The notes: generated by a model not told the origin, from the sequence alone. Shown: positions 9,001-33,000, counted from the first letter of the stretch. The stretch: 64,000 bases of DNA from an uncultured Planctomycetia bacterium (GCA_964482475.1 CAYZXR010000001.1:37997-101996), one strand, 5' to 3'. Program-made: numbers and translations.

Positions 9001-12000
9001 GTTTCGACTGATTCGATACCATGTCTGTAGCTATCAGGACTAGTTGTAGCAACAGATATCAAGTCCTGATTCTCGTCATAATAATAGCTGTAATAATGTG
9101 TAACGCCTGTTTCATCTATCTCTCTGACAAGTTTTTCTTTACCCGGTTCTCCACTGTACTCGTATGTAGCTTTTCTGATCGGACTCGCGGCATACTCCTC
9201 AGTTCCATACTCGAGATATCTTGTAACTTCTTTTGCAACAAGCCTTCCATCATCACCATACTGGCATGCAGTTACAGAATCTATCTCTTCTATACCTGTC
9301 ATGGAATTTTTTCTGTATTTACGCTCTATATCGATATCCTCTTTGTCTCCAACACTCTCATAAGAAACGACAGAATCAATAACATCATAACCACCTACTG
9401 ATTCCTTGCTAGTGGTAACTGATTGCAACGCACCCATCGAGTCATAATTGTAAACACCGGTTCTTTCAACATCAGTATAATTAGCCTGACCATCCGCCGC
9501 GTAAGATATTGATTTTTCCGTACGTTCATGAGTGTCAACACCTCCGTATATGATCAAAGTATGTTGTTGGAAAAACCCGGACAAATCGCGTTCTATACTC
9601 CCATCCAAAGATATATCATACATGTTTGTATAGTTGATTTGATCAATAAAATCCAGATCTCCCCGATCCTTATCGCCGGCAATATCATCCTCATCAGCAT
9701 CAAGATACCCACCAAACCCGTCAACATTATGATAGGCGTCCGCATAATAACTATTATCGTTGTAATAGTAATAGCTACTTTCCGACAACAACCTCCAATC
9801 AATCACTTCATCAATTGAATCAAATTTCTTATCTTCCACTTTCACATATTGGATCTTTTCATAACCTTTCTCACCTTGATACTCCATGGTACGCTTTAGT
9901 GTTTTCGGATCAAATACGGTTTCTTCGGAACCGCTAACAGCAATTGATGGGTATGTGTAATCGTACTCATACGCCAGCATTTCATCTATCGCATGGTCAC
10001 TATCATATGTATACTCTATTCTTCCCGAAAGTATCAGCTCCGTCCCATCAGAAAAATAATTCGAGGAAAGTGTTTGGCCCACACTATCAAGTTCATGTTT
10101 AATCTGGTTTTGGTCTATAGCATAGTTTTCTACATTGTCTATTCTTTCATTCCCGCTAGCACCTTCATACTCGATTTTGCTTTCTTTTGTAAAGTCGTCA
10201 CGGTATCTTTCCATTAATAACATTTGTTTTGTGTCCACGTCATATATGAAATCATCCCAACTTTTTATTTCACCATTTGTCTGGTAGTAATTAATACTGT
10301 AATTGGCTTTTTCCTCGTCTTTCATACCGGTATATTGCGTACGGCTTATCAATGCTCCATCCTTCAGAGTCTCGGTATATCTCAAGGCTCCATGCATTTT
10401 GAGATATTCCTCGGTTACAACTAACGCGTCAATATCCAACAGAATATCCGACTCTGTCATTCCCGATATTATTCCTGAACAATTCAAAGCCTTAGACTGA
10501 AGATCGTTACTCATTGCCAGAAGATCTTCAGCAACCGCGCTTGTTCCCAAATTCCGCAAAACAACAATCTCGTCTATAGCATTTTGTATATTAGTTTTCG
10601 CCTCCTGCACAATGCTCGCCCTCTTCACGCCTGCCTCAGCAATATCTGCCATGACCAGTTCCTGTATCCTACCAAACTCATCTTTTATTGCATCATAATA
10701 TTTTCTCACCTCAATTGTTCTTCCCATCTCTTCGGAAATCCCTGTTATCCTTAAAAGAACATCTGCCGCGTAATCACTTTCACTTCCTGGAAGAGTTATT
10801 TGAACAGCTGTCACTGTGTCTTCGATATACTCCATTGTTTTCATATAAGCATACAACTCTTCTGCCTCGGTTTTGCGCGCTCCTTCTATCGCGGCATTAC
10901 TCGTAAGCACATCATTCATTTGAACCACAAGATTATAATATCCAAAAATCTTACTTATCTTACTCGCTTCCCCATACTGAGTCCCGTCTTCTTCATATGA
11001 CGACATAGAAGCAATAGCACTTGTCATACCGATAAGGCTGTCTTGTATCGCACTATCATAACTGATCTCCGCGACATAACCAATACTATCCTTGTACAGC
11101 ACGGCCTCCTCATACATTTCCTCAAACCCGTCTTTTGTCTCTTCCGCAGTTTCTTTAACACTCTTAGAATTCCATTTATCCGCACTATCGCTCATGTAAA
11201 GTACTGATTTTTCCATATATTCTGAAATTTTAGCTAAGTTTTCAAACTGATCATTAACTTTGACTTTATCCAAAATTTCTCTAGCGTCAGAAACTGAAGT
11301 AATTATGCCACTACCGCTAATTGCGCTACTAGCACGTGATGAGGTTTGTCTAATCGAGGCAATCTCCAATCCCTTAATCTTACATTCCGCATCAAGCGAC
11401 TCATACTCGTTTCTTAGCTCAGCTCCTGATGCCGGCCAAACCAATAGTCGGCTATTCGCTTCAGACAAATCTGAAAACGCCTGTTTTTCAGTATCAGTGA
11501 TCTCTACCAAAAGTTTATTATCAGTATCTATTGCTACCTGCAAGTCATCTATCGATTTTTCGAGAAACTCAACTTCAGCCTCTTTAAGGTAAACTTCTCC
11601 CCTCGCTCTCTGGGCAACGGCATCAGCGGTCCTATAGGACCCATCCCCAGCATCTCTCAATCCCTGTGCATATTCTTTAAGCATATCACGGCGCGATTCC
11701 AAGTCAGACAGCTCCGTCTCTAACACTGTCAACTGTCTCTGTTTTTCACTCTTTTCAGTTGCAAACGCGTCTTTTTCAGCTACAAGTTTTTCTTTTTCAA
11801 TAACAATGTTCTCATATTCATCTTGAAGCTTATTCTTCTGGTCTATCAAAAGATCTTCATAATCATCAGCCAATATTTTCGCGATATCTCTTTCCTCTTT
11901 GAGCTTGTCCAATTCCAAACTAACCGCATTATAGAGATTCTGCAAAGTTAATGCTTCTTGATAATCCTGAATAAACCCGGCATTACTGGTAAGTGAATTA

Positions 12001-15000
12001 GCTGTAAGTGTCATTTGAGCTGTCTTAAGCATCACATTCATCAAGCTTTGACTAGCAGCCTTGGCTTTTTCTCTCTCTTCATCAGTCGCACCTGACTCCA
12101 TTTTACTTATTTCATCTAGAAAACCAGTTAAGATCTGCTGACCAGCCTCTGCCTGCAAATTTGTCTGTTTTTTAAGATCAGCCGCGGAACTTTCACCTCT
12201 AAGTAAAGCTTTTTCAAGTTCATCCCTGCTACTAGCGCTAACAAGAGATTTGGTTATCTCTTCCGACAATCTAGCTGCCGCTGAACGCTGTGAAACGCCT
12301 TCATTCCTTTCTGTGATCCCGAGTACTTCCTCAGCAAGCCTGTCCCTATATTCGTTAATAGAATTAGTGTTGTTCTGAACATATTCCGCTAACTGCTGAA
12401 AAGAATTTGCTACCCTCAACGAATCCTGAACATCATCATAAAGTGATGCCTCTGCTTTCATTTGCAGATCCAAAGCTTCATCCTTAATATCTCTTGCCTC
12501 CTTGGAAAGCCCCTCAGATAGAAACATCCTGCTAATTCCCACGTTTTGTGAATTTCCAAACGCGTCTCTGCTATATACATCCACAAGCACATACCCTGCC
12601 GCAGGCGATGGAATACTCTCGGCTGACTGCCTTTTTAATTCCAGGCTACCATCCGGTAATGTCCTATACCCAGTCGGAGCATAAGTTTCTCCCGACCATT
12701 TAAAATAGGTCTGATCGCCTATCTTTTTTTCGAACTTATATTCAAGTTTCATGGTGTTTTCATCGGTCTCATCCCAAAGAACTGGTTCAGCTCCCAACTC
12801 CCTGGTTAATTTATCCAAAAATCCCGTCTTTTCCAGATCATCATCTTCTTTCGCAAAGTATGTCAAATAATCTTCCGAGGCTTCATACTCCGTTTGCGCC
12901 CATATCACTAATTCCCTGGTCTCAAAATAATACTTGTATTGTGCTTCTCTCTTTTTAACAGCTGCGTCATAAACAGCTTTTTTGGATATTGTATCCCAAT
13001 GTTCCGATCCTAAACCGTCCCTTGCCGCATCGTAAGCCTCTAAAGCATCTCTTTCTTCTGATAACGCTCTTGAATACTCCAGGCTAGCTATATCTCTAAT
13101 GGCCACAGCCTTATCCCACTTACTTTTCATTTCATCACGTCGGTCAGACGCTAATATTTTAAATCTCTCCGCAATTTTGATTTCTTCCACTTTTTGGTTA
13201 ACTTCATGCTCCTTTTCCCTATATTCACGTTCTTTTTCGTAGTATCCCGTAACAAGAGGAGTGGAAGTGGAATCGTCGAACCACGTAGCGTTTATTTCTT
13301 TATAGAGCCTAAACGAATCGTCAAGTTCATCACTAGATTGCAAAACAGGAATCGGCATCTGCGCCATTCTGTAATCGATCTCTCTTCTCTCAATGTTCTG
13401 CTGTTTTATCTCCATAAAATCATAAATATCGTCATTGATTTTCTCTAGTGCTTCTTCCATGGCGATTACCGCAAAATCCGGTGCGATCATCGAGTATGGT
13501 TTGGTATACGCAACAGTGTCGTGCGCCGTATAGGCATCATTATAGGCATTTGCCTCAACAGCTGATTTCCATTCTTCGTCAGACTCAAATATTGATCTAT
13601 CAACTGAAATGAATGTTCTTTCATAATAAGCAACAGCATCGTCTATCGCGTCAGTAACACTTTTATTGGTTGTAAAAGATTCCAGATCATGGTCAACACT
13701 GTAAGTGTCGTCCGTTGTTGCCCCTATTTCATCAGCATATTCCAAAGCCGTCTCAACAACATCCATATAAGCTCGTCTATATTCTTCCAGTGCCACATCA
13801 AGATTGTCTTTTGCAGCGTCTCGGGTAGATTGCAAATTTGCCAAAATAGATTCATCATCGATCGCATCAAGTTCTCTGTACCTTTCGTTGTATTCTTCAC
13901 AAGCATCCAGATATTTTTTATTTAACCTTTCAACATCTTTTTCCATCTCTTCGGCTGTCTGTCGTTTATAGTAAAGTATGTCTTCCATTAGGTCTTGAGT
14001 TTTTTTCAAATCCTCAAAACTCACCAGATCAACATAATAGCGATTAATGACCTTCGTCCTTAAAATCTTCTGTTCCTCTACCCATTCGTTCCACTTGGTA
14101 TAATCAGAATATACACTTTCAAAAGATTGCGTAGTACCGTTAAGAAAAACATCGTAATCTTCAAAATATTTAGTCCGCTTCGCCCTATCATAATCCGGCT
14201 CCATCGTGGCAACTAATTCCGCCATTGTCATATTCATTTCTTCTCTTGCATCTTCCATCTCAAGACGGGATTCTTCCATTTTATATCCAAGACTATCTAC
14301 TGTATGCCATGGAATGTCGGTATCTCTCTTGAGTATTCCCAGCTCGCTGTCTGGTTCCATAAAAAGTCCATCGTAATTATTTCTATTAGCGGATAGCTCA
14401 AATCCAATAGTCTCGCATCCATACAGTATCAATACTACCGGTATGACGAACACCTTTCCTGTATAGCTTTCATATATTTCATCTAATTCTTCAATTTTAT
14501 CGGCATAATATTCAACAACACTTATGCTTTCTCCTGTATCTTTCGCGTTTTTCCAGTTCGAAAACGCGATCTGTAAATCAACTTTCAACACGGCAATCTT
14601 TTCCTCGAGTCTAGCAAGAGCAACCAGTCCCTGCTTATAATTATCATAAGCATTGTCGTATTCCTCTTTTGCGTTATTGTATATAGCCTGTTTAACCTTG
14701 TATTCACCTTCAATGATTTTCTGCTCCGGAGTAAAGTCTACAACATTATCCATAGCGCTGTTGGCATCAGAAGTCAACTCATCCGAAATATCATCCATCA
14801 GCGCCCAAACACCATCCATATAACTTACCGTGTTAGTAACTTCTGTTTTAACCTGCTCAGCCTGGTCGGATATTTCAGACAGTGCACTTGAATATTCCTC
14901 GGCATATCTTATTGCCATTTCACTGTAATTTGCGCTTTCTCGCAAAGAATTTGCCTCATTTTTAGCCTTTGTATATTCTTTGCGTGATTTACTGGCAAGT

Positions 15001-18000
15001 TCATCTTGCGCCCACATAGCGATCTCAGCTTCACTCGCTATGTTATATGCTGTTTCCATAACAACTTTCGATGCAGATACAGATCCATCATCAATCGCTT
15101 CTGCCTGCAATCCTGCCATGTACTCATCATAAAAACTTTGAGCGATAAGTCTTTCAGAAATAATAAATTCCGTGGTTCCTGTTTCAGGCACACTGTATGT
15201 AAATGACACTGTAACTGTTTTGCCCGTAGAATTATCTGTCACTTCCAGTATGCCCCCGGAAACATCTAGATGATATCCGACAAGATTCCAATTAATCACT
15301 TCCAGGCCACCGGAAGAATCGACCATTATCTGCCCAATTTCAGTAACAGAAAGATTTTCATCTAAAGGATCTGAAAGAATATTATCGAGACTTTTCCGAT
15401 CGTAATCCTCATAAACTTTATCGGAATCTGATGAGCCATAGGAAATGTACCTATTGTATAGAGATTGCGCATCGTCGTCATTTATCACGCCATCAGCATT
15501 CTGGTCACTTATAGCGTTTAAACGTCCTATCCTTGCTTCAGCAAACACCGCCGAAGCTTTCGCGTCACTCCATATCAGTTTAAGAATCTCGTATTTACCT
15601 AACTCCTCGTTATATGTCTCTTTTTTAGCGTTGTACTTGTTAACCGCTTTTTCATATTCTTCCTGCGCTACTGCCGCAGTATGCTTGAATTCCGACAAAT
15701 TGTTTTCAGCCAATATTAACGCTTTCTTTTTCACGATAAGTACAGTATCTGTCTGAATGGCTTCGGAGTTTATCTCGGACATTCTGGATGTAATATCATC
15801 CACTTCCTGTTGCAGCCGCCTTCCTTCTTCTTCAGCATTATCACGCAAAGCTTTTATTTCATTCGCTATAAGATGTAAAAACTCAGCGCGTTCTTCCGTC
15901 TCTAGGGAAATATATCTGTCATTCAAATCATCGCCCGCCTGTCCGCTCCAATAAGAATAAAAATCAGGTGAAGGCAAATCGGAGTTACCATCATCGTACT
16001 GACCGTCATTATTCGAATCTACATAATCTTCGCCCACGTCCCACTGGCCGTTACTATTTGTATCGGTATATGACTCAGGATAATCTATCGAATATCCGTA
16101 CGCGGTTAGAATGTCAATTTCGGATACTGATGATTTCGCATAAACACGTGCAGTTGTATAAGTAGCCTGAGTTTCTACCTTAAAATATGTTTCTCTCAGT
16201 TCCTCTTCCATGGCCATGACTCTGTTCAAAGCTTCTTGAAACGCATCTAAATTAGCTTCCATTTCCTGAGCTTGAAGTCTCTTAAGTTCCGCTTCTTTTT
16301 CAGCCTCTTCAACCGCAAGCCTAGACTCTAATTCTGTCGTCCTTGCTAACATCTCAGCTTCCAAAGATTGATCAACATTTTTCACCGCATCATCCAGAAT
16401 GTCTCTTACTTTCTCAAAATTCGTTCTTGCCACATTCAGGATTGCGTCCTGAGTAGTAACATTGCTTCCTGCAGTCGCTTCATTTTGCCTTGCCGCACAA
16501 GCGTTTTCCTGAAGTTCAAGATCATATGGATTTGATACCATTAATGCCTGTGCCTGAAGCATTACAAGATATTTAGATTCGTATTCTTCACTTGCCGACA
16601 AATACCCTTCCCATGCCTCTGTAAATACCTCTCTCGTTACCTCAATATTCTGCTTATTCGTATAGTACTCATCTTTTTTAGTCTCGGCAAAGGCTTCCGC
16701 CTGTTCAACTGTCTCCGGCGAGAAAGATGTCATATCCATTGTTGCCTGAGCCTGAATAAGAGCATTTTCCGCGTACGCAAGGTTATCACTCAGCAATGTC
16801 TGCCTTGTTGTTTGATTCAGCAATGACTGGTACCCTGCTTGCGTATACAGTTTTATAATGTTCCCCGCTGTTTTCGCCTCCACTGACGCTGTATTCGCAA
16901 GAAACGCTCTTTCACTTGATCCTATCTGGAGTTCAGCCAATTCTTCTTCAAGGTACATAAAAGTATCATAGTACGCCCTTCTCGTTCCATAATCAGTCTC
17001 TGCTTTCATTTTGGTCAGCATATCCTGTTGCATATCAACCAAAACCTCTGCGCTTGTTTTTGCGTCTTCAACTGCTTTAGTGTTTTTGAGAACTGTTGCT
17101 GTCTCCATTAGAAATTCCGCAACATTTGCTCCGTCTGTCACCAAATACGAAACACCGTTCAACATATTAGGTACTTCATTCATGCTATCCCGCTGTTTGA
17201 TAATATATTCCAGTTTTTCTTCAGTTTTTAGTATCTCTCTTTCCAGCTCATCATTTGTCGAATCATATAAGAACTCATTTCTTAAGCGATCCAGCTTTTC
17301 AACCGTGACCTTATATTCAGAATCCATCGGATTACTCACGATAATAGACTCATAAGCAATCAACGCGTTCTGTGCTTCCCTTGCCGCCGCGTATACCTCT
17401 CTGGCCACCTGTTCCGCAAGATCGGCATTTTCCAAAGTAAATACCTCATTAATCAGATCATAATTTATGTCTTCCTTTAAATCATTAACCTCAATTTCTT
17501 TATCCTCGATCTCTTTCTTCAAAAGTTCGTTATCCACATCATTCACCAGACGTTTCTCCAAGGCTTCCAACTCGGCCTTCGCGAGCGCGTAACCATTATC
17601 TCCAAGCAAATACCCGATTCTGTTAATATTCGCTTTAACGGTAGAGGCCGTTTCATATGCACTTCTTTCCAAATCAGCAAGATTCTTTATAGCTCCTAGT
17701 AAAAGACCGTCTTCATCTTCAGCATCCGCGAAACCACCTTCTCTACCAAGCAAGTCTTTCATCCAATCAATGGTATTTTTTTGTTCCGATACTTTCCCTT
17801 CCAGCGTATTGAGAAGTGAATCAGCATAAAATTCCATATCCGCGATCGCGCCATAAACTTCATCTTCTTTCTTCGCCAGGAACAGTCTGTGTTCAGCGTC
17901 AGCAAGTTCTTCTTTTTTCGCGATTATATTTTCAGCTACAGCTCTTAAATTATCATCTTCAATAATTCCGTTTGAAATATTCTCTATAGTCTGTTTCTTT

Positions 18001-21000
18001 ATTTCAAGTTCATTAGCAATACTTTCCAATTCTAAAACCATAGCGTCAAATTGATCCAAAAGACTGGCTTGTTCGTTCAAGAGCGTACCTTTCTGAGCAT
18101 TGAGACTCGCAATGGCTTCTTCAAGAATAGCAATTGCTTCTTCATTTCCTTCTTCATTTTCTTCCTCAGCCAAGTCTGCCTCCGCCAGCAACAACGCGGA
18201 ATTTACCTCATATATCTCCAGATCTTTATCTTCCAGCCAGGTAATCAGCGAATCCAACTGGGTCTCTTCCGTGTGCACATCGGCACTCAATAAAGATATT
18301 TCGTCGACAAGAACAGCAATCGCATCATTGTAATCTTTCGTATATGCATTCAACTCATCCTCAAGTGTATCAACAACGTCTTTAGCTTCTCTCACTACAT
18401 CTTCCACTTCTGTCGCATAATACGCGTCCATCTGCATGGCAACGCCTTCCCTCATAGACTCAACTACTGCATACAGTTGTTCTAAATTGTCATATTCTGC
18501 TTGAACCTTCGTTGCTATCTCAGAATCTTGAATAATCTCATATACCGACCTAGCAAGCTCCGCATTACATCCGGCAAAAACTATGTCACTTAAGCCCTCT
18601 ACAACAACCTTATATCCCTCTATCTTGTTCCAAATTGTTGAAGCAGCAGTATTGTAATCCAATTCTGCGTCTATCGCATTTTCCTCAATGATCTCAGCGT
18701 CAAGAACCTCCTGTGCTACTACGGATAGTCCCTCTTCTATTTCTATCAGCTTTGGTTCCAACAAGCTCTTTGTCACATTCAATACCTCTTCTTCCTCACC
18801 TTCGGCAACATCAAGTTTTTCCTCTATCTCGGCTAATTGGAATTGAACGTTCAGATGTTTCAGCTCAAGCTCCCCTAATTCCACACGTTTCTGATCCGCA
18901 AATGACTTGACTAAATATGTACCTCCTTGATCCCCGTTTAGAGTATCGATAACAGTCTCCGTCCCTCCAGATACGAGACTATCGTATATACTGAAAAGCG
19001 GGGACAAACCACTTAGCCTGTCGGCTATCTCAACACTTACCGCGACAAGCACGTCTCTTTCCGCAACCATCTCACCCTTTAACTCACTGTCAACCTGTGG
19101 ATCATAGGTGGAATCTGACCATACAGTACTTATAACGCTATTTATGATATCAATTTCGTCATCTGTCGACGCTTTCCGCAACTCCAAAGAGGACCTTAAA
19201 CTATCTAGTTCCGCTGTTAGGCTGGAAGCATATCCTACTGAATCAGATCCGTTTGCCGCGGAATCTACCTCGATCTGCATGGTCTTCACATTAACAAGTT
19301 CATCAAGTTCATCAATTGACAAGTCTCCTGAACTTGAAAAATTGGTCACCGCTTTATCGTATAGCCATGAAGTTATATCGGAGAACGATTCTGTCGACAA
19401 CTCGTTCAAAGAAGCCAATGCCGCGTCCATAGATTGTGCTGTAGATCGTGAATACACTTGATCAACATATGCTTTACCCTCGGCGTTATAATAATACCCT
19501 GTTACTGAATCAATCGTTCCATATGTGAACTGTGAAACCCCGGCATTTGCCATTTGGGTATATATTTCCGATACATCAGACGCGTTAACAATACCGTCAT
19601 CGTTTACATCTTTATGAAATCTCAGCATATCCGCATACAGATCGAAATCTGTACTATTGACAACACCATCATTATTTATATCCACTTTTTTCAGCTCTGT
19701 TCCCGTTTGAAAATTCTTCGTATCCATATAGTCCAGCAAGTCCATCCATACCTCTTTATCCACTTCGTTCCTCGCCCCGTCACCATTTATATCAACAAAA
19801 TTGTTCAATGAATTGCTCAGCATGTCTATATCCACTGTATTAAGTTCCCCATCATTATTCATATCAGCTCTGATCTTCTCTTCCGCACTAACAAACCGCT
19901 GGCCCGCTTCCATAGTGGATATCGTTTTAACCTGTTCCTGTATATCTGTTAACACTTGCTGAACAATCGTAGCCATATCAACACTATCAGAAATTATAGT
20001 ATTAGACGGATATTTCAACGCCAGAGATTGCATAGGATTAAAGTAATCAGTCACAGCGTCAACTATGGCATCTATCCTCGCGCTCAAAGAAATAGCTGTC
20101 AGGGGACTTTCATCAATATAAGACCGCAGATTCTCCGCCATTTTCAAGTTCACATTAATCGTGGCTAACTTATTCAGGGCTTCTTCTTCCGCACTGATGA
20201 TATTTTTTATAGTTTGCTCGATATCCGACTGTTTAACCTCCAAAGCATTAACTTTCATCTGCAAAGAATCTCTATAACCAGCTACGGTTGCATTAGACGT
20301 GTCAAGTGCCAAAGCATCGTTAGCGGCATCCAGAATACTTTGCGCATAGATCAACATGTTATCCATCATCTCTTCATACGTTTCCGCTACCACGCTGACA
20401 GGAACAATATCGAGTTGAACCTGGATCGCGTCCGCTTTAAAGATTAGTTTATCGACAAGTTCGGGCAGATACCCCGCTTTTGCCTCTACCGTAAGAGCGG
20501 CATCATATGCCTTGAGTTCAGCGTCAGAAAGAACCCTATTCGCCCCAACATCTTCCTGAGAGATTAAAACCTTTCCTGAATAAATTTGTTCAAAATTATC
20601 TACTGTCATAACATAGGAATATCCATTTGACTCATAAGCCACCTCTCCATCATCAATATTTTCTATTGAAACAAAATGATCTCGACCATTGTTCTTAACC
20701 AAAGCTATAGCCGGCAATGTCACCTGTGATAGATCGCCCAAACTAATCTCTACGCCTTCCAAGTCAGCTCCACCAGCTTTTGCCAAACTCTTAAGCGTAA
20801 ACATCGTTGTCTCAAACTGTCCGGCTTCTGTCATATTGATCGCACCTGACAAGATATCCGAAATGATTGATGCCGCTGAGAGCATCTCTTCTTTGTCTGC
20901 GTCAACATTAAAATAATCGCCGAGGACATAAGACGCACAGTTTATTATCTGTAGACCCTGGTTTGTAAGCCATGAAGCTATGGTGGTTATCCCGCCCGTT

Positions 21001-24000
21001 AAAAGTACCGCAGGATTATTTACAGACAAGAAATCAGTAAATGGAGCGTAGAATGCATTCTGAGGGGCGTTGTATTCTTCAACGACTTTCTTGAAAAAAC
21101 CCGTTACAACACCCGCGATACCTGATGCTATCGCGAATGCTTTCTCTGTGACTGAATTATAAGACGTACTGCCAAATCCAAACGCAACATCACCAAGATA
21201 GTCAATGATCGCTTCTTGCCATGTCGATATTTCTGATACAATGCTTGGATCTTCAACTAACAACCTGATAAAAGTTTCGTCATCTCTTGCAAGAAGATAC
21301 TGAATGGTTCCATCGCTATTCGGTATCACTTGCAGATTATCACCAAGGGCAATTGTCGTCGTCACATCACCCGTAATCGTCTCAAACACTTCTATCAGAT
21401 CGGCACCATCAAAAACCGCGCGAAAAACAGTACCGTCATCCAGATTGGTAACGACTTCAACTCGACCGTCTACAATTGTCATCTCAGTATTCAAATCAGA
21501 CGGGTCTAATAAAACAGTTGTTGTTAATTTGTCACTAACCGATCTGACTATCCCTACACAAACCGCTTCAACTTCATAATAGACACTTCCAAGCTCCATA
21601 CTGTTAGCATACGCCGCCTCTTCGTCTCTTTCTGATGTCGCTATACGCTGGATGCTGTTGTATAGATCTCCCACGTTATCCCTTAGTTCTGATGAAAATA
21701 AAAGTAAAGCAATCAATTTTTCGGAATCATTTTCAGCCACTACCAATGTTTCCAGGTTTTCTGCAAGGTTCAGCATTTCCACACTATTGTTAAGATAGGA
21801 CATACCTTTAGTTTCTATGCCTTCCTGCATTGCGGCGATCTTTTCAATTGATTCCCGGGTATTGCTATTAGCCAGAATAGCTTTACTGGAGCTGGCAATA
21901 CTGATAGCCAGATCAATACCACCAGTTTCATTATACATACCCTCGATCTGCCTCAAATCCTCATTAAGGTTTTTGTAGGCCAAGTCTGCTATTTGCGCGA
22001 ATGAATATGCCCTTTTTGAAGATATAGCAAGTCCTGCGTTCTCAGTACATTGCGCAAGCACCTCAATATTAGCACGGCCTTTATCCGTCGAGGCTTCTCC
22101 GTAAATAGTTGAATATTCTGTTTCTTCATAAGCTTCGATTGTAAGCAACAATACTCTATTATTCTCTTCGACCATTTCATCTAATTTATAGACATTAACT
22201 ATGTCAATATTATCTAGACCGGCGGCGTAGGTATACAATTCATCAAGTTCCCCGTTTTTCTCTTCTATCCTGTTTGCCATTCTTTCGGCAACATTTTCAT
22301 AAGGAGTCAAAGTTATTAACTCGGAAACTTTAAGCATTGTATTAACGATGATCTTACCTTCATCGACTAACGAGTCACCGTTTGTATCGATTGCCGCTTT
22401 TTCTCTAACAATCATCTCGATCGCGCTTCTATCATTTTCTATAGAAGTTTGTGCGGACTCTAACATTGTCATGTCTTCCTCAGTCGCGGCAATAGCCACC
22501 AGAACCATCAAGGTCTCGATCGTCTCCATACCGACTTCAACTGAACTGGCACTCTCCAACGTAGACCTGTCCTGATGAGACAACTCATCTGAAATAATCA
22601 CCAACGCGTCCACCTTCTCAGTAACGGTCAAATTACCTCTTTTGCCTTCAATATCCGCGATATCGACCGCATTCCTAATCGCATTGATAGAAGATACCGC
22701 TTCATCCAATCTATCCTGCACCAATTGAGCGTTCCTATACATTTCCTGGTTAGTTATGTTATCATTGCTAAGATTTGTGGCCAAAACACTTGTCTCTCCC
22801 AACACGTTATATACCGTCAAAGCAACTTCTTCCAATGCCACCATAGTAGTAACATCCACGTCGTCTGAAACAATAAAACCGGTCATAATATTGTTAAGGG
22901 TCTGTACGGAGTCCAGCATCCTGTCTGCCTGATAGGTTAAGTTAGCTCCCTCCGTAACTTTGAATTCTTCCAGGGTAATCTTATCTTCTATCTCTTTTGT
23001 TTTCTGGGTAATCTCGCCAACAACATCCTCGATCTGCTGTTTTTTCGCTGCCATAACCGCTGTCAACGTGACTCCGTCAAGAACAGTATAAACTTCAGCT
23101 GTAAGCTCTTCCGCCATTTCGGTAATTATCAAAGACACTTCAACCATGCCTTTCGCGACAGTTATATCAGCAAAATTCCTGTCTATGTCCGTATGCATCC
23201 TGTTGACCTGTTCAAGATATTCTTCCGCGGCATCAGACAAATTCGCGACAGCTTTCTCAATAGCTTTTTCCCGAGAGGCTTCCACCATTTCCCCCGCCGC
23301 GGTCAGCATTTCATCAATTTCATCAGAATCCACTCGCATAGACTCCGTTTGCAACTCACCCAGCACCTCTTCCATAATCGAAACAAGAGCCATGGCGTAT
23401 GAAGCGTCTTTGGTAGCAAAAATTTCATCTCTAATAGTTTCGATAGTATTTCTATCTGAACGGGCTTCGTTAAGCACATACTCAAAATCCTGCGAAACAT
23501 TAATTGCCGCAAAAACAGTCTGTTCAATATTTTCATATGCTGAAACAATATTATCAAAAGATGTCTTCACGACAGCCAAGTTGCCAGCAATATCAGCATC
23601 CTCAGAATATTCCAGAGATAACAAATTAAGTTCAATTAAGTACTGTTCAGAATCTTTCAATAGCTGCTTAGAAAAGTCGTACAATGCCAAAGTCATTTCC
23701 ATATTGTCCGCACTAATGTAGCCGGTCAAGGAAAGCATCCGGCTCAAACTATTATTAACCGCGTTCACCAGATTATCGCCTTTCTGCTCAAAAGACGTAT
23801 ATTGCCTTAAAATATCTTTGGAATCCGTGATCAGGGCAAGAACATCATTCGCCGACTCTCCGTTAATTTCCGCCAATTCATTTATTTGGCTGTTATTTCC
23901 GTAGACGTCTGAAATAGCGTACAACTCCCGCGACAGGTTAAATATCTCAAGCGCGGCATCATACGCGATCTCGTAGAAAACAGAGGCTATTTCACTGTTT

Positions 24001-27000
24001 TGCGCGATCGTCATTTGTTCTATATTACCGCTTACTATATTAGCGTAATTTTCTATCATCGCGGACAATTCAACAGATCTCGTTTCCGCGTTCTGGATCG
24101 CTGAAAAAGTTATATTCAACCCTTCAATATAGACAACCGCATCAGCGATAACTTCCTGAGCAGCATCATTAAAAATGACCAGTTCGGGATTATCTGTCAC
24201 TAGTTCGGTAAGAGCATCGGCCGAATCATCAGCCAACATGACAAGCTTAACGGACAAAGCTACTAAGTCTTCAGCTGTAGCGCTATTATGTTCTTTATCC
24301 AGCCCTTCAGAAAACATCTTCGCAAGAGTAACATATTGAGTTATCGCGCTTACAGTCAGGTCATTATGATCATCCGGAACATCAAACTCAACTGTTGAAG
24401 ATCTTTCCGTTATATACGAAACACCGTTCTCGGACGTAATCCTGAGCGATTCGCCCCATGCTTTATCTGAATTACTCCCGACTAGATTGTTCATCTGCGT
24501 TTCATAATTTGAAGCATCCAAAACCAAAGAGTCTATAAGATTCTTGAGAGCTATCCTTTCTTCTTCACTTATAGATAAATCAAATGCTTTAATGGCCAGA
24601 TCCAGCACCCTGTCTAATTCATCGATATTATCAAGTATCTCCGCGGCTTCGTTATTGAAAAGATATGACTCATTAAGCCTGTTTTCTATTAACGCGACAG
24701 CAGCCGTCACCTGTGTCAATTCATCTAAAATAGTCAAAGCATCCGACGTGCCCGCGCTTAAAGCGCTATTGTAAACCTCTTCTACCAATTCCTTGGCTTC
24801 TTGGGCAAGATACAGCATAAGCTCTATCTCATCAATTGATAACACGGTCAAAGATTTCGCTTGCATCCCTTCAGCTATTAATCTGTTCTGTTCAACCAGT
24901 TCCAGCGGGGTCATCTCGATCGTTCCCGGTTCAAGTTCATCGACTAACTGATTCGCAATTTCCAAAGAAACGTTCAACCTTGCCAGCTCATTATTAAGTG
25001 CGCCTATGAGTTCCTGAGCTTCAGACGGGCTTGCCATCATCATGCTCATCCTCAGCACTATATCCGCCAACATCTCTACTTCCCCAACCATATTCTGTAT
25101 CGCACTTTCATCCGCAGCCGCTTCACGCCATTCTAAAACTCCTTCACCCCTAAGTAGCGTCATTTCCTCTGCTATGGCGGCGGCATTATTAGCGTACGAT
25201 ACGGACAATTCCACCGGATTTGTTCCCCATATCTGGAACAATGCCTCAATATCCGCCGCGTCTACCATACCATCTGTGTTAATATCATATGACGTCAGAG
25301 ACCCAATAGACTCTTGCAGAATACTCGCATCAATACTTGTCAATTTTGAGTCTTTATCAAGATCCGCAGCCACAACATCTTCAGCACTTATGTCAAATTC
25401 CGAAGCTTCCACTATCCGATTCAGAGTGATAACATCTGACTGGTCAATCATATTGTCCTTATTGATATCGATACGATTATCCATCGCGTTTTGTAACGAT
25501 ACTTTATCATCGTTGTCTATAATTCCATCGCCGTTGATATCCGCATCGCCTGTCCAACTGGTATACAAGTTCTTCCTGTAATAAGTATCTAACCTCGCGA
25601 CATCCTGGGCATTCAACTGTCCGTCTCCGTTAATATCTTTACCGCCATAGGCGTTTTCAACATACAGAAGTTTATCTTTGTTATCCACCATGCCGTCATT
25701 ATTTATATCAGCTTTTTCAACATCTGCTATACTGACACCGGCCTCTTCCTGCATTATCACCGTTCTTTCGACTTTAGCGACATCGTATTCTGTAAAAACA
25801 CCGTCACCATCCACATCCTTTATACCCGCAAGCGCGCCTTCCAGAATGTCCGCGTCTTCATCGCTGATCTGTCCGTCATCATTGATGTCTGATAATATGA
25901 TATCGGCTTCAGTATACTTATGACCAAGTCTCTGATACAACATCGCGTCTTCTAAGACAGCGATATCCAATCCATCAACCACACCGTCAGACACGCCATC
26001 CGCACCACTTACGTCGGATATTGAGTAATTATTGTAAGCATTTCTTAACGCCTCAAGATCACTTACATCAACCATTCCGTCGTTATTGACATCCAAAAGC
26101 TCGTCATTTTCTGTTTCTTCTTTCGTAACATCCAAATTATTAAATTCAATTATATCACTGAATCTTACAATATCATCTATGTCCAACTCTCCGTCACCAG
26201 TCACATCGGCGATAGAAGCCTCCTCCAGCATCCATTCAAGTTTCTGTTTATCTGAAATGGTAACCTCTTCGTCACGATCTATGTCAGCCGCCCTGATCTC
26301 ACCCGGCATCGGCATATCTGATTCATAGATATAATCGATCATATTTGTAAGAGTTTCGATATCCGCGGAATCCACATAATCATCAGCATTCATGTTAAAG
26401 AGATTAGCCTCCATATCAATGGTATGATAATATAAATCTTCATACGCATTATTATCTAAGTCGTTCACAATACCGTCTTTATTGATATCCGCGAACTCTT
26501 TCTCCTGTTCGGTAACCTCGTACGCAATAGATTCCCGTATATCTGAAAGCCGATTTATATCCGCCTCGTCTACACTACCGTCATCGTTAACATCGAACAT
26601 CTTGCGCTTATCAACCATCGTTTTATATATCTCGTAATCATTTTCAGTAAATTCACCGTCACCATCAATGTTCCCAGCTGTTGTCAAATCTTCCAATGAT
26701 ATTGAGTAACCCAGGTTATAAAAATCGATGATCTGCTGCATCGCTTCGACATCTTCTTCATTCGCTTTCTTGTCACTATTGAAATCAACTTTGTGCATAC
26801 TTCTTAACAAGTTAGACACATAATCATAATCAGTATAATCAACCTGCCCGTCATCATTTGTATCTGCTTGCATTATCGCTTCGGCATCTACATCCAGTTC
26901 TTTATCCCTAAGAATATCAATTACCCTGTCCACATCGCTGCGTCCTACCACACCATCACCGTCAACGTCTCTACCTTCCAACGCACTAATCGCGTTCTCC

Positions 27001-30000
27001 ACGCTTGTCCAGTCCGTCTCATCGACAACACCGTCACTATTGATATCTGCCTTGCTATAATCCGCAAGCTGCATCACGTCACCCTTCCTGATCCCCTGCA
27101 GAATATCATTCATAAGAGAAATATCTTCTTGATTGACCAGATCATCATCCGTAATGTCGGTTTCATCCACAAACGCCAAAGCCTGGCTTAAGGCGACCGC
27201 ATCCAGATCATCAATAACCCCGTCCTCATTGATATCCGGTCTGCCACCATCGGCTATCTTGACCTCCGAAATACTATAAATCGTCCCTTCAAGCTCAACT
27301 CTTCCTGTTTCTGTATCGGAAATATACAAGTTGCCATCCGCGTCAATAAAAGTACAGGTCCCGTCATCGTTCATCTTATAGCTATACTCCACGCCCTGCA
27401 CATCAAGAACACCGTCGTATACATGTTCACTTAATTCGTCATATTCCTCAACGATACTAATACTACCTGTGTAGATATCTTTCGTTATGTTATATACCCT
27501 GCCTTCTATGTTAATCTTGTCTATATCAGCATCCGTTGTGTACGCTCTATATCCATCATCCAGCGTATATGTACCGTCATAATTATCAAGCACCTCATAA
27601 AGCACCCCATTAAGATCAACCAGTTGTTCCATTATCGTAACACTTGTCAAATGGCGCTCCTCCAACTCATAATGTCCGGTCAAAGCGTCATATGAAATAT
27701 GAAAAATACCACCGTTCCATTCTATCTCATTTGTCACAAGATTACTTACAGAGCCTCCCAGACTAAAAGTACCATCATCATTCTGTCCTATGCCAATTCC
27801 ATTTTTATCAGATGGATTAAACTTGATAACTTCACGCCCTGAAGCATAGTCAAATCTTGACTCAGCGTAACGGTATTGTTCAACTAAAATGATCTTTCCC
27901 GTTGCATAGTCAGTCTCTATATCATACGTTCTACTTCCCAATATAACCGTTCGATTTATCTCACTTAGGATTTCCCCTCCACTATATGCCGCAAACAGAT
28001 ACACACCATCCGGATTCGCTAGAACATCATAGATTTCATCGTCTACCTCTATAGTCTGATCAGCGACTAAATAGCTCTCAACATGTGATTCAACTAGCTT
28101 AATATCTCCAGTTATTTGATCAATCACGATATCATACACAGTTCCCGCAACATTAACTTTCGTCGCACCTTTGCGCGTTGTATACTCATCTTCTTCGCCC
28201 TCAAAAGTATACGAACCATTTTTATGGTTTTTAACCCTGTAAAATTCACCATTCAGAGATATCACCTGGTCATATACCATCCGGGCCATATCAGCAATCT
28301 TTTTAAGAGTTACATTCCCGGAATTGTTAACGCTGATATCGTATTGCTCATTTCCGATTGTAACAACTCCATCATACGTGCTTACATACTGTTCTTCGTC
28401 CAACACGAAAGTATATGTTTCATCCTCGTTGTTTACAACATCCACTGTCAGGCCTTCAAGATCGATCAACTGATCTGCCAAATGCTCACTTGTCAGATAC
28501 GCGCCTTCTCGTTTTTCCAAAATCACATCGCCGTTGTGTTCTATCGTCAGATCATATATTTCTTCGTTAATCTCAACTATATTCAGCCCGGGATAACTAA
28601 TATAGGTATGTTGTCCGTCATCAAAAATATATTGACCATTACCCAAATCATTTACCGCGTAACGAATACCATCTAAGACAATAACTTCATCCGCGACAAA
28701 AGAGCTTGTTGTACTACCCGCTTCAACCAGTTCTAATTCTATTCCATTGATTACACCTAAAGCCATATCCGCCAGGACATCTGTGATCCTGGATACATCT
28801 TCCGAATTAACTTGTCCATCACCGTTTATATCAACTTGTCCGCTAATCGTGTTCGACAACAGCCTCATATCCTGATCGTTCACAACACCGTCATCGTTTA
28901 TATCCGCTTTGTTCAAAGTCCCGGGCTGCAATTGATCTAATTGTTCCATGCTACTCATTGCTCCCTGCAACTGAACCAAATCATCGACATCATATACACC
29001 ATCGGCGTTAAAGTCGCTTGTATCGACAAGAGGATAATCCCTGATCGCTTCACGGAGTCTGGCAGTATCTTCGGTTGTCACTGACCCGCTTCTGTCAATA
29101 TCCGCGCGCCTAACCATATCCTCAGAGACTCCTAGAGCCATAGCTTCCGCAATTTCCTCCATACGCTGTACATCCTGCTCGTCAAAAACACCACTTAGAT
29201 CAACATCCAGATCCTGGCTCAGTATTTCCTGTAAATCATCAGCATCGGTTTGATCTAGAACGCCATTATGGTTAACATCGGCGCTTTCAACCACGTTCGG
29301 CTGTAGCACCGGAGCCACCAGCTCGCCGTTATTGACGTTATCGTCGGTATCGTCGTAGTAAACCATCTCGTTCGGATCATACAACTTGTTATAAATATCC
29401 ATGAAAATATCATAATCTTCTCTTTCCGTCTGACCACTTCCATCAATATCATACTTATTACGCACAATATCATAGAGATCATTGGCATCCGAAAAATTTA
29501 CCGACCCATCTTTATTCACATCCGCTATTGCTTCCCAATCATTAATATTGTCAGTTGTGATCTTTGCTCCTCCTCCAAGAGGATCTTCATACCACATTGT
29601 CTTTTGGATGCTTTGAATATCAATGCTGTCAACTCTGTCATCACCGTTAACATCTTTATAGTTTCCGCTTATTTCCTCAAATAGTTCGATATCATTTTTA
29701 TTTAAGATCCCATCCTTATTAAGATCAGCTTTTTTTACGACTTTCGGCTGCTGCAATTGTCTTTTATATACATCCGACAAAGCATATGTCGTACCTTTGA
29801 TATCAACACTATCTTCACCTGTCTCTTCGTCGTAATAGCTATAATAAGTGTTTATCTTGTCCTTGAACCTATATGTACCATCTTCTTCATCTCTTGTGAC
29901 CCTATAGTTAGTGCCCTCGATTACAACCGTGTGTTCATCATCCGTTCTTTCGGTATCCGGTCTTTCGACTAAAGTTACTTTGCCTGTTTCAATGTTAGTT

Positions 30001-33000
30001 GCGATCTCATACAAAACCTCATCCAGCGCAACTAACTCAACATTCAACCCGTCTTCAAGCGCAAAATAGCTTCTTTCATATAAACCTTCTTTTGTCTTAA
30101 AATTATGCGTGCCATCGTCCATGTGTGTAACCTGATAGTCCACTCCCATAGCCCTAATTGACTCATCCGCTGTTTTCGTACTAACAATGATCGGACTGTC
30201 TATTACGGCATTGCCCTCATCACCTATAGTGATTTCCAGAACCATACCCTTAATATTAAGCAACATTTTCTCATCTTCCAGATAGCTAAGGTATTCGTTC
30301 GTCCCGTCATTAAACGAATAGATACCGTCAGAAATGGTTGTCACTATGTATATAGTGTTATCTATCTCAAGCGTCTGGTTATCAACTGTCTGGCTGCTTA
30401 ATGGAAGGACTCTTTTAAGAATAACAGCCGAATCAATCTCAGAAATAGCGTACTTGACACCTTCAAGATCAACATAATGCGTTAAGCCTTCTTCATAGCT
30501 GTCAGCCGACATCACTCCGTTAAATATCCTGTATCCTTCGTCCTGTATAGAAACATTGTAGTCAATACCATCCAATCTTATCACGGTATCCGCGGCTTTC
30601 ACACTTGAAGAATCCACTGATTCCAAACTCAATGTTCCATCAGCGTCTTCAATCACTGTTAAAGTTACTTCATCAATCGTTACCTGACTTTGATCATTGC
30701 TATCAGCGAATATCTCTCTCTCGATAGCTATATCACCCGAAACTTGATCAAGATCAATACTGTATTCCTTATCGCGAATATTGACCTCATTGTTTTCATT
30801 TAAATAATAAAACGTTTTTTCAACAAACTGACCGAATTTTATACTGCCTATCTGCAAAGGACAGTTGCTATCGCTATTCGTCCAAACCAGTTTAACTTCA
30901 TTCGTTCCTGACCCCAGATCAATGTCAAGCATGCCCGTAACAAACTCCCCACCATTCACCGGAACTTCGATCGTTCCTTGCTGTTCACCATTGACATATA
31001 CGGCAAAATTGTATTTGTAAGTAGAATTATCTCCGTAATGATATCCGTCATAATAATAGGAGCTGACCGGTTCCAGAACCTGCCTTGTATCAACGACAAG
31101 ACTATGTAACCCCGCTTTGTCCACATCTAACATATACGTTAAATACGCGCCTGAGCCCGCAGTATTAAGCATATTGTCCGAGATCGTCCAATCCGAACTT
31201 CTGTCAACAGTATCCACAACATCCTGTTCTTCAAAAACCTTTTCCATATCCAACGGACTTCCTGAAGCAACCTGTATTCCATAACACCCGATTTCGTCCT
31301 GAACCCATTCAAAAGTGTAATCATCAATCTCAATCGTATTATCTCCGACATTTACACCTTCCTCCGTTTTACTTACCTTGTATGTTCCATCACCGTTATT
31401 CAAAATGTCATATTCCTGACCATCTACTGACACCTTCTGATCATACGTCTCAAAGCTTCCAAGATCCGGCTGACTCAAAATAACTTTATCACTCACAATA
31501 TCTTTTTTAATATCGAATGTAACCCCTTCAATGTCTATCTGTCCTGTATCCTTATTGCTAGTATAAACATCAGTATCCTTATCCATAACATTGAACGCAT
31601 ATAAACCATCGGAATCTGTAATCAGATTGAATATTTTTCCATCAAATTCAAAAGAAGCGCCTTGTGTAAACTGAGATTTTTGTGTTGTAAATATCGTGTA
31701 ATCTTCTTCGTTGATCCTAAAATCAGCATTAAAATCCACCGGATCATCGCATGCTTCTATAAATATACTTTCCACTAAAAGGCCTTCATCAAGCGAAGGT
31801 TCATCCATGCTTTCAAACTTTAATATGTGCCAGCCCGCTTCCAAATAAACATATTCTTCGGCTAACTCGAGTTCATTGATATTCCTCAACACTTCAAGTT
31901 CCGTGGTTTTCTCGCCGTCAACATAGATCATAAAAGAAGAATATTCCGGTTCCGGCGAATCCTTGACGCCCCAATACTCTACCCATTCATCGGATGAACC
32001 TGTTTCCTTAACACCTATATGTTCTATTTCAATGTTACCGTAGTTTACACCGCTATCAATCACCGGATAGAAACAGAAATTACGGATCGTCCCGGACCAA
32101 TTCGCGTTGTCCGCCATGTCGATATAATAAGTATGATATTCCCCGTCAGGTATGATGAGAAAATCTTGATACCCGGCTCCGGAACTGCTGTCCCAATACA
32201 ACCGCGCGGTGGTACCCGAATCGGCTTTATATTTAATTTCAGCGTATTTATTGGTGTCTGCGTTAACATCAATCGAATACGGACTGGCGAAACGCGGACT
32301 CGTACCCGTAATCTGGGCTGATATAGCTCCTTCCGGAGTATAGGTAAACGAACTCAGGCCGTAATATGATGACGCGTACCATGGTTCATCATATGTGCCA
32401 CCGGACCAGTTCACTCTATATTCATAAACCGTATCATTCTTAGCCGACAGTCCAACTTTATGATACCCTGATTCTTCAATGTTCACTTCATAAGTGATCG
32501 GCAAATATTCTCCATACCCATACATGTCGTAGCCCGATCCTAACGTGCTCACTTCAGCACGGTGCAAAACATCGCCGTCCTTTACCCACTCATGGTAGCT
32601 TTCATCCCAATAATAGTCTTCATGATAATAGTCTTCATCAATTGCTCTTGAAGACCAGAGATCCGCGGCATTTATCTCTATCCTCTGCTGGCTAATGGCA
32701 TTCCGAACTATAGCGTCATCATCGTCTCCCACTATGCCATTATTATTCAGATCAATCTCTAACTTCTTAACCAACTCAACTCTTCCATCCGTTTCGTCCT
32801 CAAGCACCAAATAAACCACATCATCGATCTCAACATTATCAACAGGAATCTTATCTTCCTCAACAATAACAAAATTATCTATTCCCCATGATGCTCCCGT
32901 TGCCCCTTCATTAAGTGTTGATCCGAATTCTAACACTAATTCATCTGTACTGTTTGTAACTAGAATGGGTATTTCTACATGTTGTACAAAATCATTATAA

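Follow-up and report, generated by a model that had tools for sequence, protein, structure and literature searches.

The window analysed here, a 64,000-nucleotide stretch of DNA from an uncultured Planctomycetia bacterium (GCA_964482475.1, CAYZXR010000001.1:37997-101996), is filled by a single giant open reading frame (ORF) on the minus strand. This work concerns a cysteine peptidase domain of the C39 type encoded in the interior of this ORF, and a motif resembling a double-glycine leader that lies shortly behind it in the same polypeptide. The main features are listed below with their window coordinates; amino acids (aa) are counted from zero, and aa i corresponds to window bases 63996-3i to 63998-3i.

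3..63998, minus strand: giant ORF of 21,332 codons without a stop, open at both window ends (six-frame stop-to-stop scan)
19431..21479, minus strand: module of ~680 aa conserved in the giant ORFs of relatives (aa 14173-14855)
20556..21056, minus strand: C39-family papain-like peptidase domain with an N-terminal helical extension (aa 14314-14480)
20496..20531, minus strand: double-glycine-leader-like motif LSDAELKAYDAA, positions -12 to -1, homologous to LTDEELMxIAGS of relatives (multiple alignment)
19536..19874, minus strand: three dockerin-type Ca-binding loops (aa 14711, 14772 and 14796; Dockerin_1, E = 9.4e-11, three stretches)

The ORF encodes part of a giant protein that exceeds 21,000 residues and is rich in dockerins. 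The encoded sequence is acidic (D+E about 20%), contains 0.68% His and is nearly devoid of Cys (37 of 21,332 residues, 0.17%). A Pfam scan of the entire ORF brought only three families above threshold, namely Dockerin_1 (18 stretches in total, from the three 5,000-aa chunks having any), EF-hand_7 and one Peptidase_C39, which agrees with the view, taken in the initial annotation of this DNA, that the peptidase is the only recognisable catalytic domain in the 64 kb. Dockerin-type Ca-loop motifs were found 79 times with a regular expression (1.3 expected) and form clusters at aa 1,000-5,000 and 9,500-13,000. The first part of the protein (aa 0-13,000; window ~24999-63998, minus strand) is strongly repetitive: within the protein, blastp detects as many as 39 paralogous matches per position. 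The repeats end sharply at about aa 13,000, where a unique region rich in helix formers starts; from there to residue 21,332 most of the sequence is unique, and the C39 region occurs once. Helix-forming residues account for 0.38-0.53 of aa 13,000-17,900, compared with 0.28-0.38 upstream, which lends crude support to the helical region, put at about 4,800 aa, in which the peptidase had been placed.

The C39 domain and its active site

Profile comparisons and a predicted structure together identify the segment as a genuine C39-type (clan CA, double-glycine) cysteine peptidase domain, as had been proposed from two short peptide strings. Both strings are present in the minus-strand translation (WLTNQGLQIINCASYVLGDYF, window 20910-20972; NNGRDHFVSIENIDDGEVAYESNGYSYVMTVDNFEQI, window 20583-20693), and the distance between their Cys and His, put at about 87 residues, is exactly 87 (aa 14353 and 14440). 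The range originally given for the domain, 20640-21600, does overlap it but has to be revised: the strand, which had been left unstated, is minus; the domain covers approximately 20556-21056, and ~28 residues at its end, among them some of the second string, fall below 20640; and bases 21057-21600 encode the upstream part of the larger conserved module, not peptidase.

In the Pfam scan the domain matched PF03412 (Peptidase_C39) with E = 3.8e-9 and 36.9 bits, against a cut-off of 22, over profile positions 43-129 of 133, i.e. over the His half. Among 1.84 billion representative proteins, searched exhaustively with phmmer, 153 homologous clusters were found at E <= 1e-3, 40 of them at E <= 1e-10, and these matches span query residues ~5-175, the Cys half included. 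PF03412 was matched by all 44 members of a sampled family alignment (A1). The A1 profile, when compared with the PDB, recovered the peptidase domain of PCAT1 (E = 3.4e-10), LahT150 (1.2e-8) and ComA (5e-6). Moreover, hhalign against the N-termini of eight annotated "peptidase domain-containing ABC transporters" from plasmid records, CvaB among them, gave a probability of 99% and E = 7.5e-18 over 125 columns, with the Cys region included and with Cys and His on the catalytic columns. The alignments with ComA and CvaB that had been suggested as a check therefore bear out the assignment, and neither of the two results named beforehand as refuting it (no significant match to a clan CA peptidase, or Cys and His off the catalytic positions) was obtained. 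A word-index homology search gave no match, with either the domain or the 44-sequence family alignment as the query.

The structural prediction points in the same direction. AlphaFold2 supplied with alignment A1 produced a confident model (predicted local distance difference test, pLDDT, 90.9; predicted template modelling score, pTM, 0.82), in which the Cys is located at the N-terminus of helix 44-53 and the His in strand 129-139. The model thus displays a papain-like alpha+beta fold, with the putative nucleophile at a helix N-terminus and the His on a beta-strand. The residues of the predicted active site are as follows.

20937..20939, minus strand: putative nucleophile Cys14353 (motif I-I-N-C-A), aligned with the catalytic Cys of (D/E)-C-G in the eight C39 transporters
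20676..20678, minus strand: putative general base His14440 (motif D-H-F-V), aligned with PCAT1 His99 (His102 in chain numbering) and with the canonical His
20625..20630, minus strand: Ser14456 and Asn14457 (...AYESNG...), the Ser standing on the canonical Asp column (HMMER, hhalign)
20958..20960, minus strand: Gln14346, candidate oxyanion-hole residue at C-7, the canonical Gln being one column off, at C-6 (hhalign)

Cys14353 is the sole Cys of the domain, and it falls on the catalytic column (hhalign). In 152 aligned copies of the family this column contains Cys in 141 cases and Ser in 10, the His column contains His in all copies except one (151/152), and the residue preceding the Cys is Asn in 134. 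Asp14380, located 27 residues past the Cys within an insert of ~11-13 residues, is also nearly invariant (Asp in 148 of 152 copies). When the A1 profile is compared with the PDB, the family His aligns with PCAT1 His99 and the column 16 residues later with Asp115; across the family this canonical Asp column holds Asp in 108 copies, Glu in 22 and Ser in 14. The Ser at this position, followed by Asn, is common to all 14 members of the closest subclade, and Asp or Glu is present elsewhere. Within this subclade the Gln at C-7, the Asn-Cys pair and the His are all invariant (10-sequence alignment); the Gln column of the whole family holds Gln in 43 copies and Pro in 40.

The Gln/Cys/His/Asp tetrad that had been anticipated is thus recovered in part. 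Its Cys and His stand, its Gln is an approximate equivalent (C-7 instead of C-6), and its Asp does not lie in the "Asp-rich strand" IDDGE to which it had been assigned, since the canonical column is occupied by Ser14456. The adjacent Asn14457 could serve as the third residue of a triad, as in papain. The retention of a lone Cys and of the His in an almost Cys-free protein argues for a working active site; nevertheless, the catalytic activity of the copy from this window is uncertain, given the Ser in place of Asp and the Ala-Ala pair of its motif (see below).

The leader-like motif behind the domain

The sequence that follows the domain was compared among the relatives. A motif L-[ST]-x-x-E-[LM]-x-x-I-x-G-[GAS], placed 20-25 residues past the domain, is present in 80 of 139 complete tails (~58%), with LTDEELMILAGS, LSDAEMMNIRGA, LNDLQMREIRGG and LTENEMMNIVGG as examples found at a fixed distance after the last conserved motif, G-x-V/I-L. 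The consensus of 101 tails anchored on G-[GAS] reads L(-12) S/T(-11) D(-10) x E/Q(-8) M/L(-7) K x I/V(-4) x G(-2) A/S/G(-1), and cleavage is predicted most often at 26-30 residues past the conserved Gly165. At the level of sequence this consensus fits the published rule of C39 recognition, which requires Leu-12, Glu-8, Leu-7 and a hydrophobic residue at -4, followed by Gly-Gly, Gly-Ala or Gly-Ser (PMC6363468). The proposal of the initial annotation that the peptidase might process the giant protein itself gains support from the occurrence of such a motif shortly after the domain in members across the family.

A strict regular expression (LSxxELxxIxG[GAS]) matched 16.7% of the tails and 0.1% of the other 50-residue windows of the same proteins, and a relaxed one 44% of the tails and 1.4% of the background windows; the tail sequences being homologous, this enrichment reflects a conserved leader-mimicking extension and not independent events. 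The NCBIfam bacteriocin leader model TIGR01847 recognises one family tail (16.4 bits, cut-off 15.7), and other leader models do so weakly. The tails of the 152 copies are of several types: 80 are leader-like, 39 carry a divergent motif, FVWG[SDN], followed by a hydrophobic segment, seven contain R-A-P-P, 13 are of other kinds and 13 are incomplete.

In the window copy the motif reads VLSDAELKAYDAA|LTVE, in which L-12, S-11, D-10, E-8, L-7 and K-6 are kept, and the predicted scissile bond is Ala14500/Leu14501. On a position-specific scoring matrix (PSSM) of the family this motif ranks third of the ~21,300 positions of the ORF, though it lacks Gly. Ala-Ala or Ala-Gly pairs recur in three relatives (P0014, P0018 and P0033).

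Two further observations concern the surroundings of the motif. A second Gly-Gly (FLSVNNPAVLLTGG; aa 14322-14335, window 20994-21035, minus strand) is located shortly before the peptidase. In the closest relatives it appears as ML...NPxILLTGG, with hydrophobic residues at -12, -7 and -4, and in the AlphaFold2 model it is part of the confidently predicted helices and loop of the N-terminal extension; it may be a candidate site, a pseudo-substrate or a purely structural element. In nine relatives (P0085, P0100, P0066, P0053, P0059, P0065, P0125, P0126 and P0145) the G-[GAS] pair is followed by a transmembrane-like helix or by cationic amphipathic repeats, e.g. GG|RGGILGFFEKVVKGIVNSIKTLV and GA|GWFSKAVSKAKSVAKSVSK, a layout reminiscent of a class II bacteriocin precursor joined to the C-terminal side of the peptidase that processes it.

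The host protein, its relatives and its compartment

Judged by their sequences, the homologues form a distinct C39 subfamily, which occurs mostly in very long ORFs and not at the N-terminus of ABC transporters. The proteins reach 7,800 aa, are often limited by the ends of contigs, and some of them hold two to four copies of the domain. No close relatives were found among genome contigs and JGI metagenome contigs with a 300-aa region as the query. A pattern search with a five-sequence alignment identified the closest genomic relatives (37-40% identity) in two Candidatus Omnitrophota metagenome-assembled genomes (MAGs) and two "uncultured Planctomycetia" MAGs. In each of these the domain is situated inside an ORF that takes up the entire retrieved locus; one such locus is a 12.5-kb stretch of a 229-kb contig. 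The homology extends well beyond the peptidase: in blastp comparisons of aa 11000-18000 with four such loci (L010, L012, L015 and L016), the segment matched was aa 14173-14855, with E = 1e-37 to 1e-64. The module defined in this way opens with a beta-rich lead-in and helices; the C39 domain and the leader-like motif come next, and a helical stretch followed by the three dockerin Ca-loops completes it. The giant protein may belong to an Omnitrophota-like bacterium.

One of the four loci, L012 (GCA_042569705.1, JBHPHD010000010.1), encodes a protein (P0004) with the same C39 module and with two C39 copies, one of which has Ser in place of Cys; its giant ORF also bears a Peptidase_S8 subtilisin domain, matching the S8 domains mentioned by West-Roberts et al. 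Another group of relatives (P0001, P0006, P0007, P0015, P0019, P0023, P0024 and P0026) has a fixed N-terminal layout, in which a signal-like hydrophobic segment at residues 8-30 is followed, near residue 600, by a C39 copy that bears the leader motif and, ~1,000 residues later, by a second copy with an R-A-P-P tail and without the leader motif. This arrangement suggests that such proteins may hold two functionally different C39 copies each.

The same relatives are informative with respect to the compartment in which the peptidase might operate, as their single signal-like segment lies ahead of the C39 domain. In the window, dockerin Ca-loops flank the domain on both sides, with no strongly hydrophobic segment in between. 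These two features together place the peptidase, probably, outside the cytoplasm, unlike the C39 domains borne by transporters. No convincing transmembrane helix was found within the window ORF, the only strongly hydrophobic segments of which, besides one weak 19-mer at aa 16515, are Ala-rich low-complexity runs (AAVAAAAGAVAARLAAAAVVVA and AAAAAEVAAAAAA, window ~6800-7430, minus strand; aa 18857-19067).

A few remaining properties of the window may be recorded here. The plus strand contains 14.9% G and 25.9% C, which mirrors a coding strand rich in Asp, Glu, Val and Gly codons, and the ORFs of 150-230 aa present in other frames of either strand are probably shadows of the giant ORF. A match to IS66 transposase at window ~18220-18620, minus strand (aa ~15128-15260), remained below threshold (E = 7.7e-4, 19.4 bits, cut-off 23.1) and is probably spurious.

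Proposed self-cleavage, its alternatives and known systems

The reading that these data support best is that the C39 domain and its own downstream recognition motif constitute a self-cleavage cassette built into the giant protein, a proposal for which we regard the chances as evenly balanced. Catalytic activity, cleavage at the motif, action in cis versus in trans, and topology are all points that we infer. In the mechanism envisaged, the leader-like, helix-forming segment, tethered ~9 residues past the domain, would fold back into the substrate groove or, alternatively, enter the groove of a neighbouring copy, and Cys14353 together with His14440 would cut after the small-residue pair of the motif. 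The N-terminal product, at least 14,500 residues long and rich in dockerins, would have the peptidase at its end; the C-terminal product would comprise at least 6,800 residues. More specifically, and with somewhat less than an even chance of being correct, the arrangement might represent a bacteriocin-type system (peptidase plus double-glycine leader) fused into one polypeptide, acting in cis outside the cytoplasm and marking the point at which the protein is split after export. Since the downstream product of many relatives starts with a transmembrane helix or with class II bacteriocin-like repeats, the cassette might also release membrane-active or membrane-anchoring pieces.

Several observations weigh against self-cleavage, most of them concerning the window copy. 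Ser14456 is found where a catalytic Asp would be expected, ~16 residues past the His; the motif has Tyr at -4 and Ala-Ala where the nearest relatives have Gly-Ser; it reaches 7.5 of 12 on the consensus score, below the threshold of 8; and it is matched by no NCBIfam leader model. Cleavage in this copy may therefore be slow or lost, given the Ala-Ala in place of Gly-Ser and the Ser (or the next Asn) in place of Asp. At the level of the family, the shared descent of the tails limits what their enrichment can tell, as stated above, and the seven RAPP and 39 FVWG copies retain the Cys and His without a canonical motif; a site in cis is therefore not required for retention of the active site. A coupling between loss of the Cys and loss of the motif was considered and rejected, as all ten Ser-for-Cys copies keep a leader-like tail. 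Likewise, cutting of the giant protein at many sites is unsupported: the best score in the ORF on the PSSM built from 101 family sites was 10.4 bits, and the mean maximum of shuffled sequences was 11.3.

Three other explanations were weighed. The least credible, which we practically dismiss, is that no real peptidase domain exists and that the two motifs are a chance likeness in a long, compositionally biased ORF. It could appeal to the PF03412 alignment, which covers only the C-terminal two thirds of the profile, and to the behaviour of the single sequence, which found no match in the PDB with phmmer (the family profile was needed) and was modelled by AlphaFold2 with a pLDDT of only 37; yet the hhalign result, which includes the Cys region, the 153 homologous clusters, the PF03412 matches of all sampled members and the AlphaFold2 model exclude it. 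Alternatively, the domain could be a dead or nearly dead relic, retained as a structural or binding module that, for instance, clamps the adjacent leader-like helix in the manner of the Cys-less C39-like domain (CLD) of HlyB. The Ser in place of the canonical Asp, the Ala-Ala of the putative scissile pair and the Gln displaced by one residue would all suit such a module. On the other hand, the Cys is kept, and Cys, His, Gln and Asn are invariant in the closest subclade, in an ORF nearly without Cys; the Ser on the Asp column is shared by 14 subclade members which otherwise have Gly-Ser sites, and is thus not a private decay, and pairs without the canonical glycine also occur in the three other relatives mentioned above. 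We consider a relic unlikely, though by no means negligible. Identity with an inactive CLD in the strict sense was rejected because the catalytic Cys is present.

The peptidase may also be active but work in trans, on free double-glycine-leader peptides, on other copies of the giant protein, or on surface proteins of prey or host, in which case the downstream motif would not be its physiological site. This would accommodate the conserved active-site residues, the RAPP and FVWG copies, the degenerate Ala-Ala site of the window copy itself and the position of the domain amid adhesion-type dockerin modules, and West-Roberts et al. state that C39 domains "may cleave other protein substrates" (10.1101/2023.11.21.568195). 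However, a leader-like motif at a fixed short distance in 58% of the copies is hard to explain if the two are unrelated; furthermore, the window holds the giant ORF alone, with any partner peptide gene out of view, and the domain is internal and not a C-terminal toxin module. Action in trans on other substrates seems to us unlikely.

The proposed self-cleavage cassette bears on a more general question. That bacteria possess giant proteins with 20,000 to >100,000 residues has become known only recently, and it may be asked whether each of these functions as a single chain or is divided into smaller parts. From a conserved internal protease whose own motif is found at a fixed distance, a testable prediction can be derived, namely one defined cleavage point, and, if true, it would mean that a C39/double-glycine system operates away from its usual ABC-transporter setting.

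C39 domains in giant proteins of this kind are already known from the literature, and our finding mainly confirms and sharpens the known annotation. The "Dockerin-type" giant proteins of Omnitrophota were defined by West-Roberts et al. in 2023 (bioRxiv 10.1101/2023.11.21.568195), and C39 domains in Omnitrophota giant proteins are reported both there and in a second preprint from 2026 (10.64898/2026.06.07.730766), in which PF03412 accounts for one of the two architecture clusters that are largest among the long proteins of Omnitrophota. Like this class, the protein described here is encoded by a giant ORF, contains many Dockerin_1 and EF-hand repeats and has a C39 domain towards its C-terminal part. 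The class also has TSP3 repeats and a C-terminal transmembrane anchor followed by a SecA-like region, none of which was seen in the window, both gene ends being outside it; the Pfam scans gave no match to TSP3 repeats or SecA in the window ORF, which is open at both ends and has its C-terminus beyond the window. Neither the text of West-Roberts et al. (10.1101/2023.11.21.568195) nor those passages of the second preprint (10.64898/2026.06.07.730766) that deal with C39, dockerins and peptidases mention a leader motif, a double-glycine motif or a cleavage site, and full-text literature searches of limited coverage yielded no description of a cis double-glycine motif beside these C39 domains.

Among the closest known systems are the PCAT/AMS transporters (PCAT1, ComA, LahT and CvaB). 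Their peptidase belongs to the same Pfam family, with the catalytic Cys and His on the same columns, and the motif adjacent to the domain in our family fits their substrate rule (L-12, E-8, L-7, hydrophobic at -4, G-2 and G/A/S-1). There are differences as well. PCAT/AMS proteins are fusions with an ABC transporter, whereas the window ORF has no match to ABC_tran or ABC_membrane across its 21,332 aa (Pfam). Their C39 domain is cytoplasmic, while the one in the window is located >14,300 aa from the N-terminal end, amid dockerins, and is probably extracytoplasmic. The Cys motif is [DE]-C-G in the former and N-C-[AG] in the window family, which moreover possesses the insert after the Cys helix with its near-invariant Asp, an additional N-terminal helical extension and, in the window's subclade, the Ser on the Asp column. 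Finally, the motif cut by PCAT/AMS enzymes resides on a separate peptide, and here it is placed on the same polypeptide, downstream of the enzyme.

Tox-PL-C39 and CdiA-CT domains (PMC3482391; PDB 8SSM, 8SSK) are C-terminal, exchangeable toxin modules accompanied by immunity proteins, whereas the window domain is internal and is followed by at least 6,800 aa. It is also nearer to PCAT-type enzymes than to CdiA-CT. CLDs of the HlyB type lack the catalytic Cys, which the window domain has together with the His; they are N-terminal domains of transporters and not part of the cargo, and that of HlyB binds its substrate without cutting it. By analogy, the proposed cassette would work in a way comparable to that of the built-in cysteine protease domain (CPD, family C80) of MARTX and large clostridial toxins, which after export cuts its own huge polypeptide at adjacent defined sites. 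The CPD differs in having an unrelated fold (clan CD, not CA), in being activated by inositol hexakisphosphate and in cleaving after Leu.

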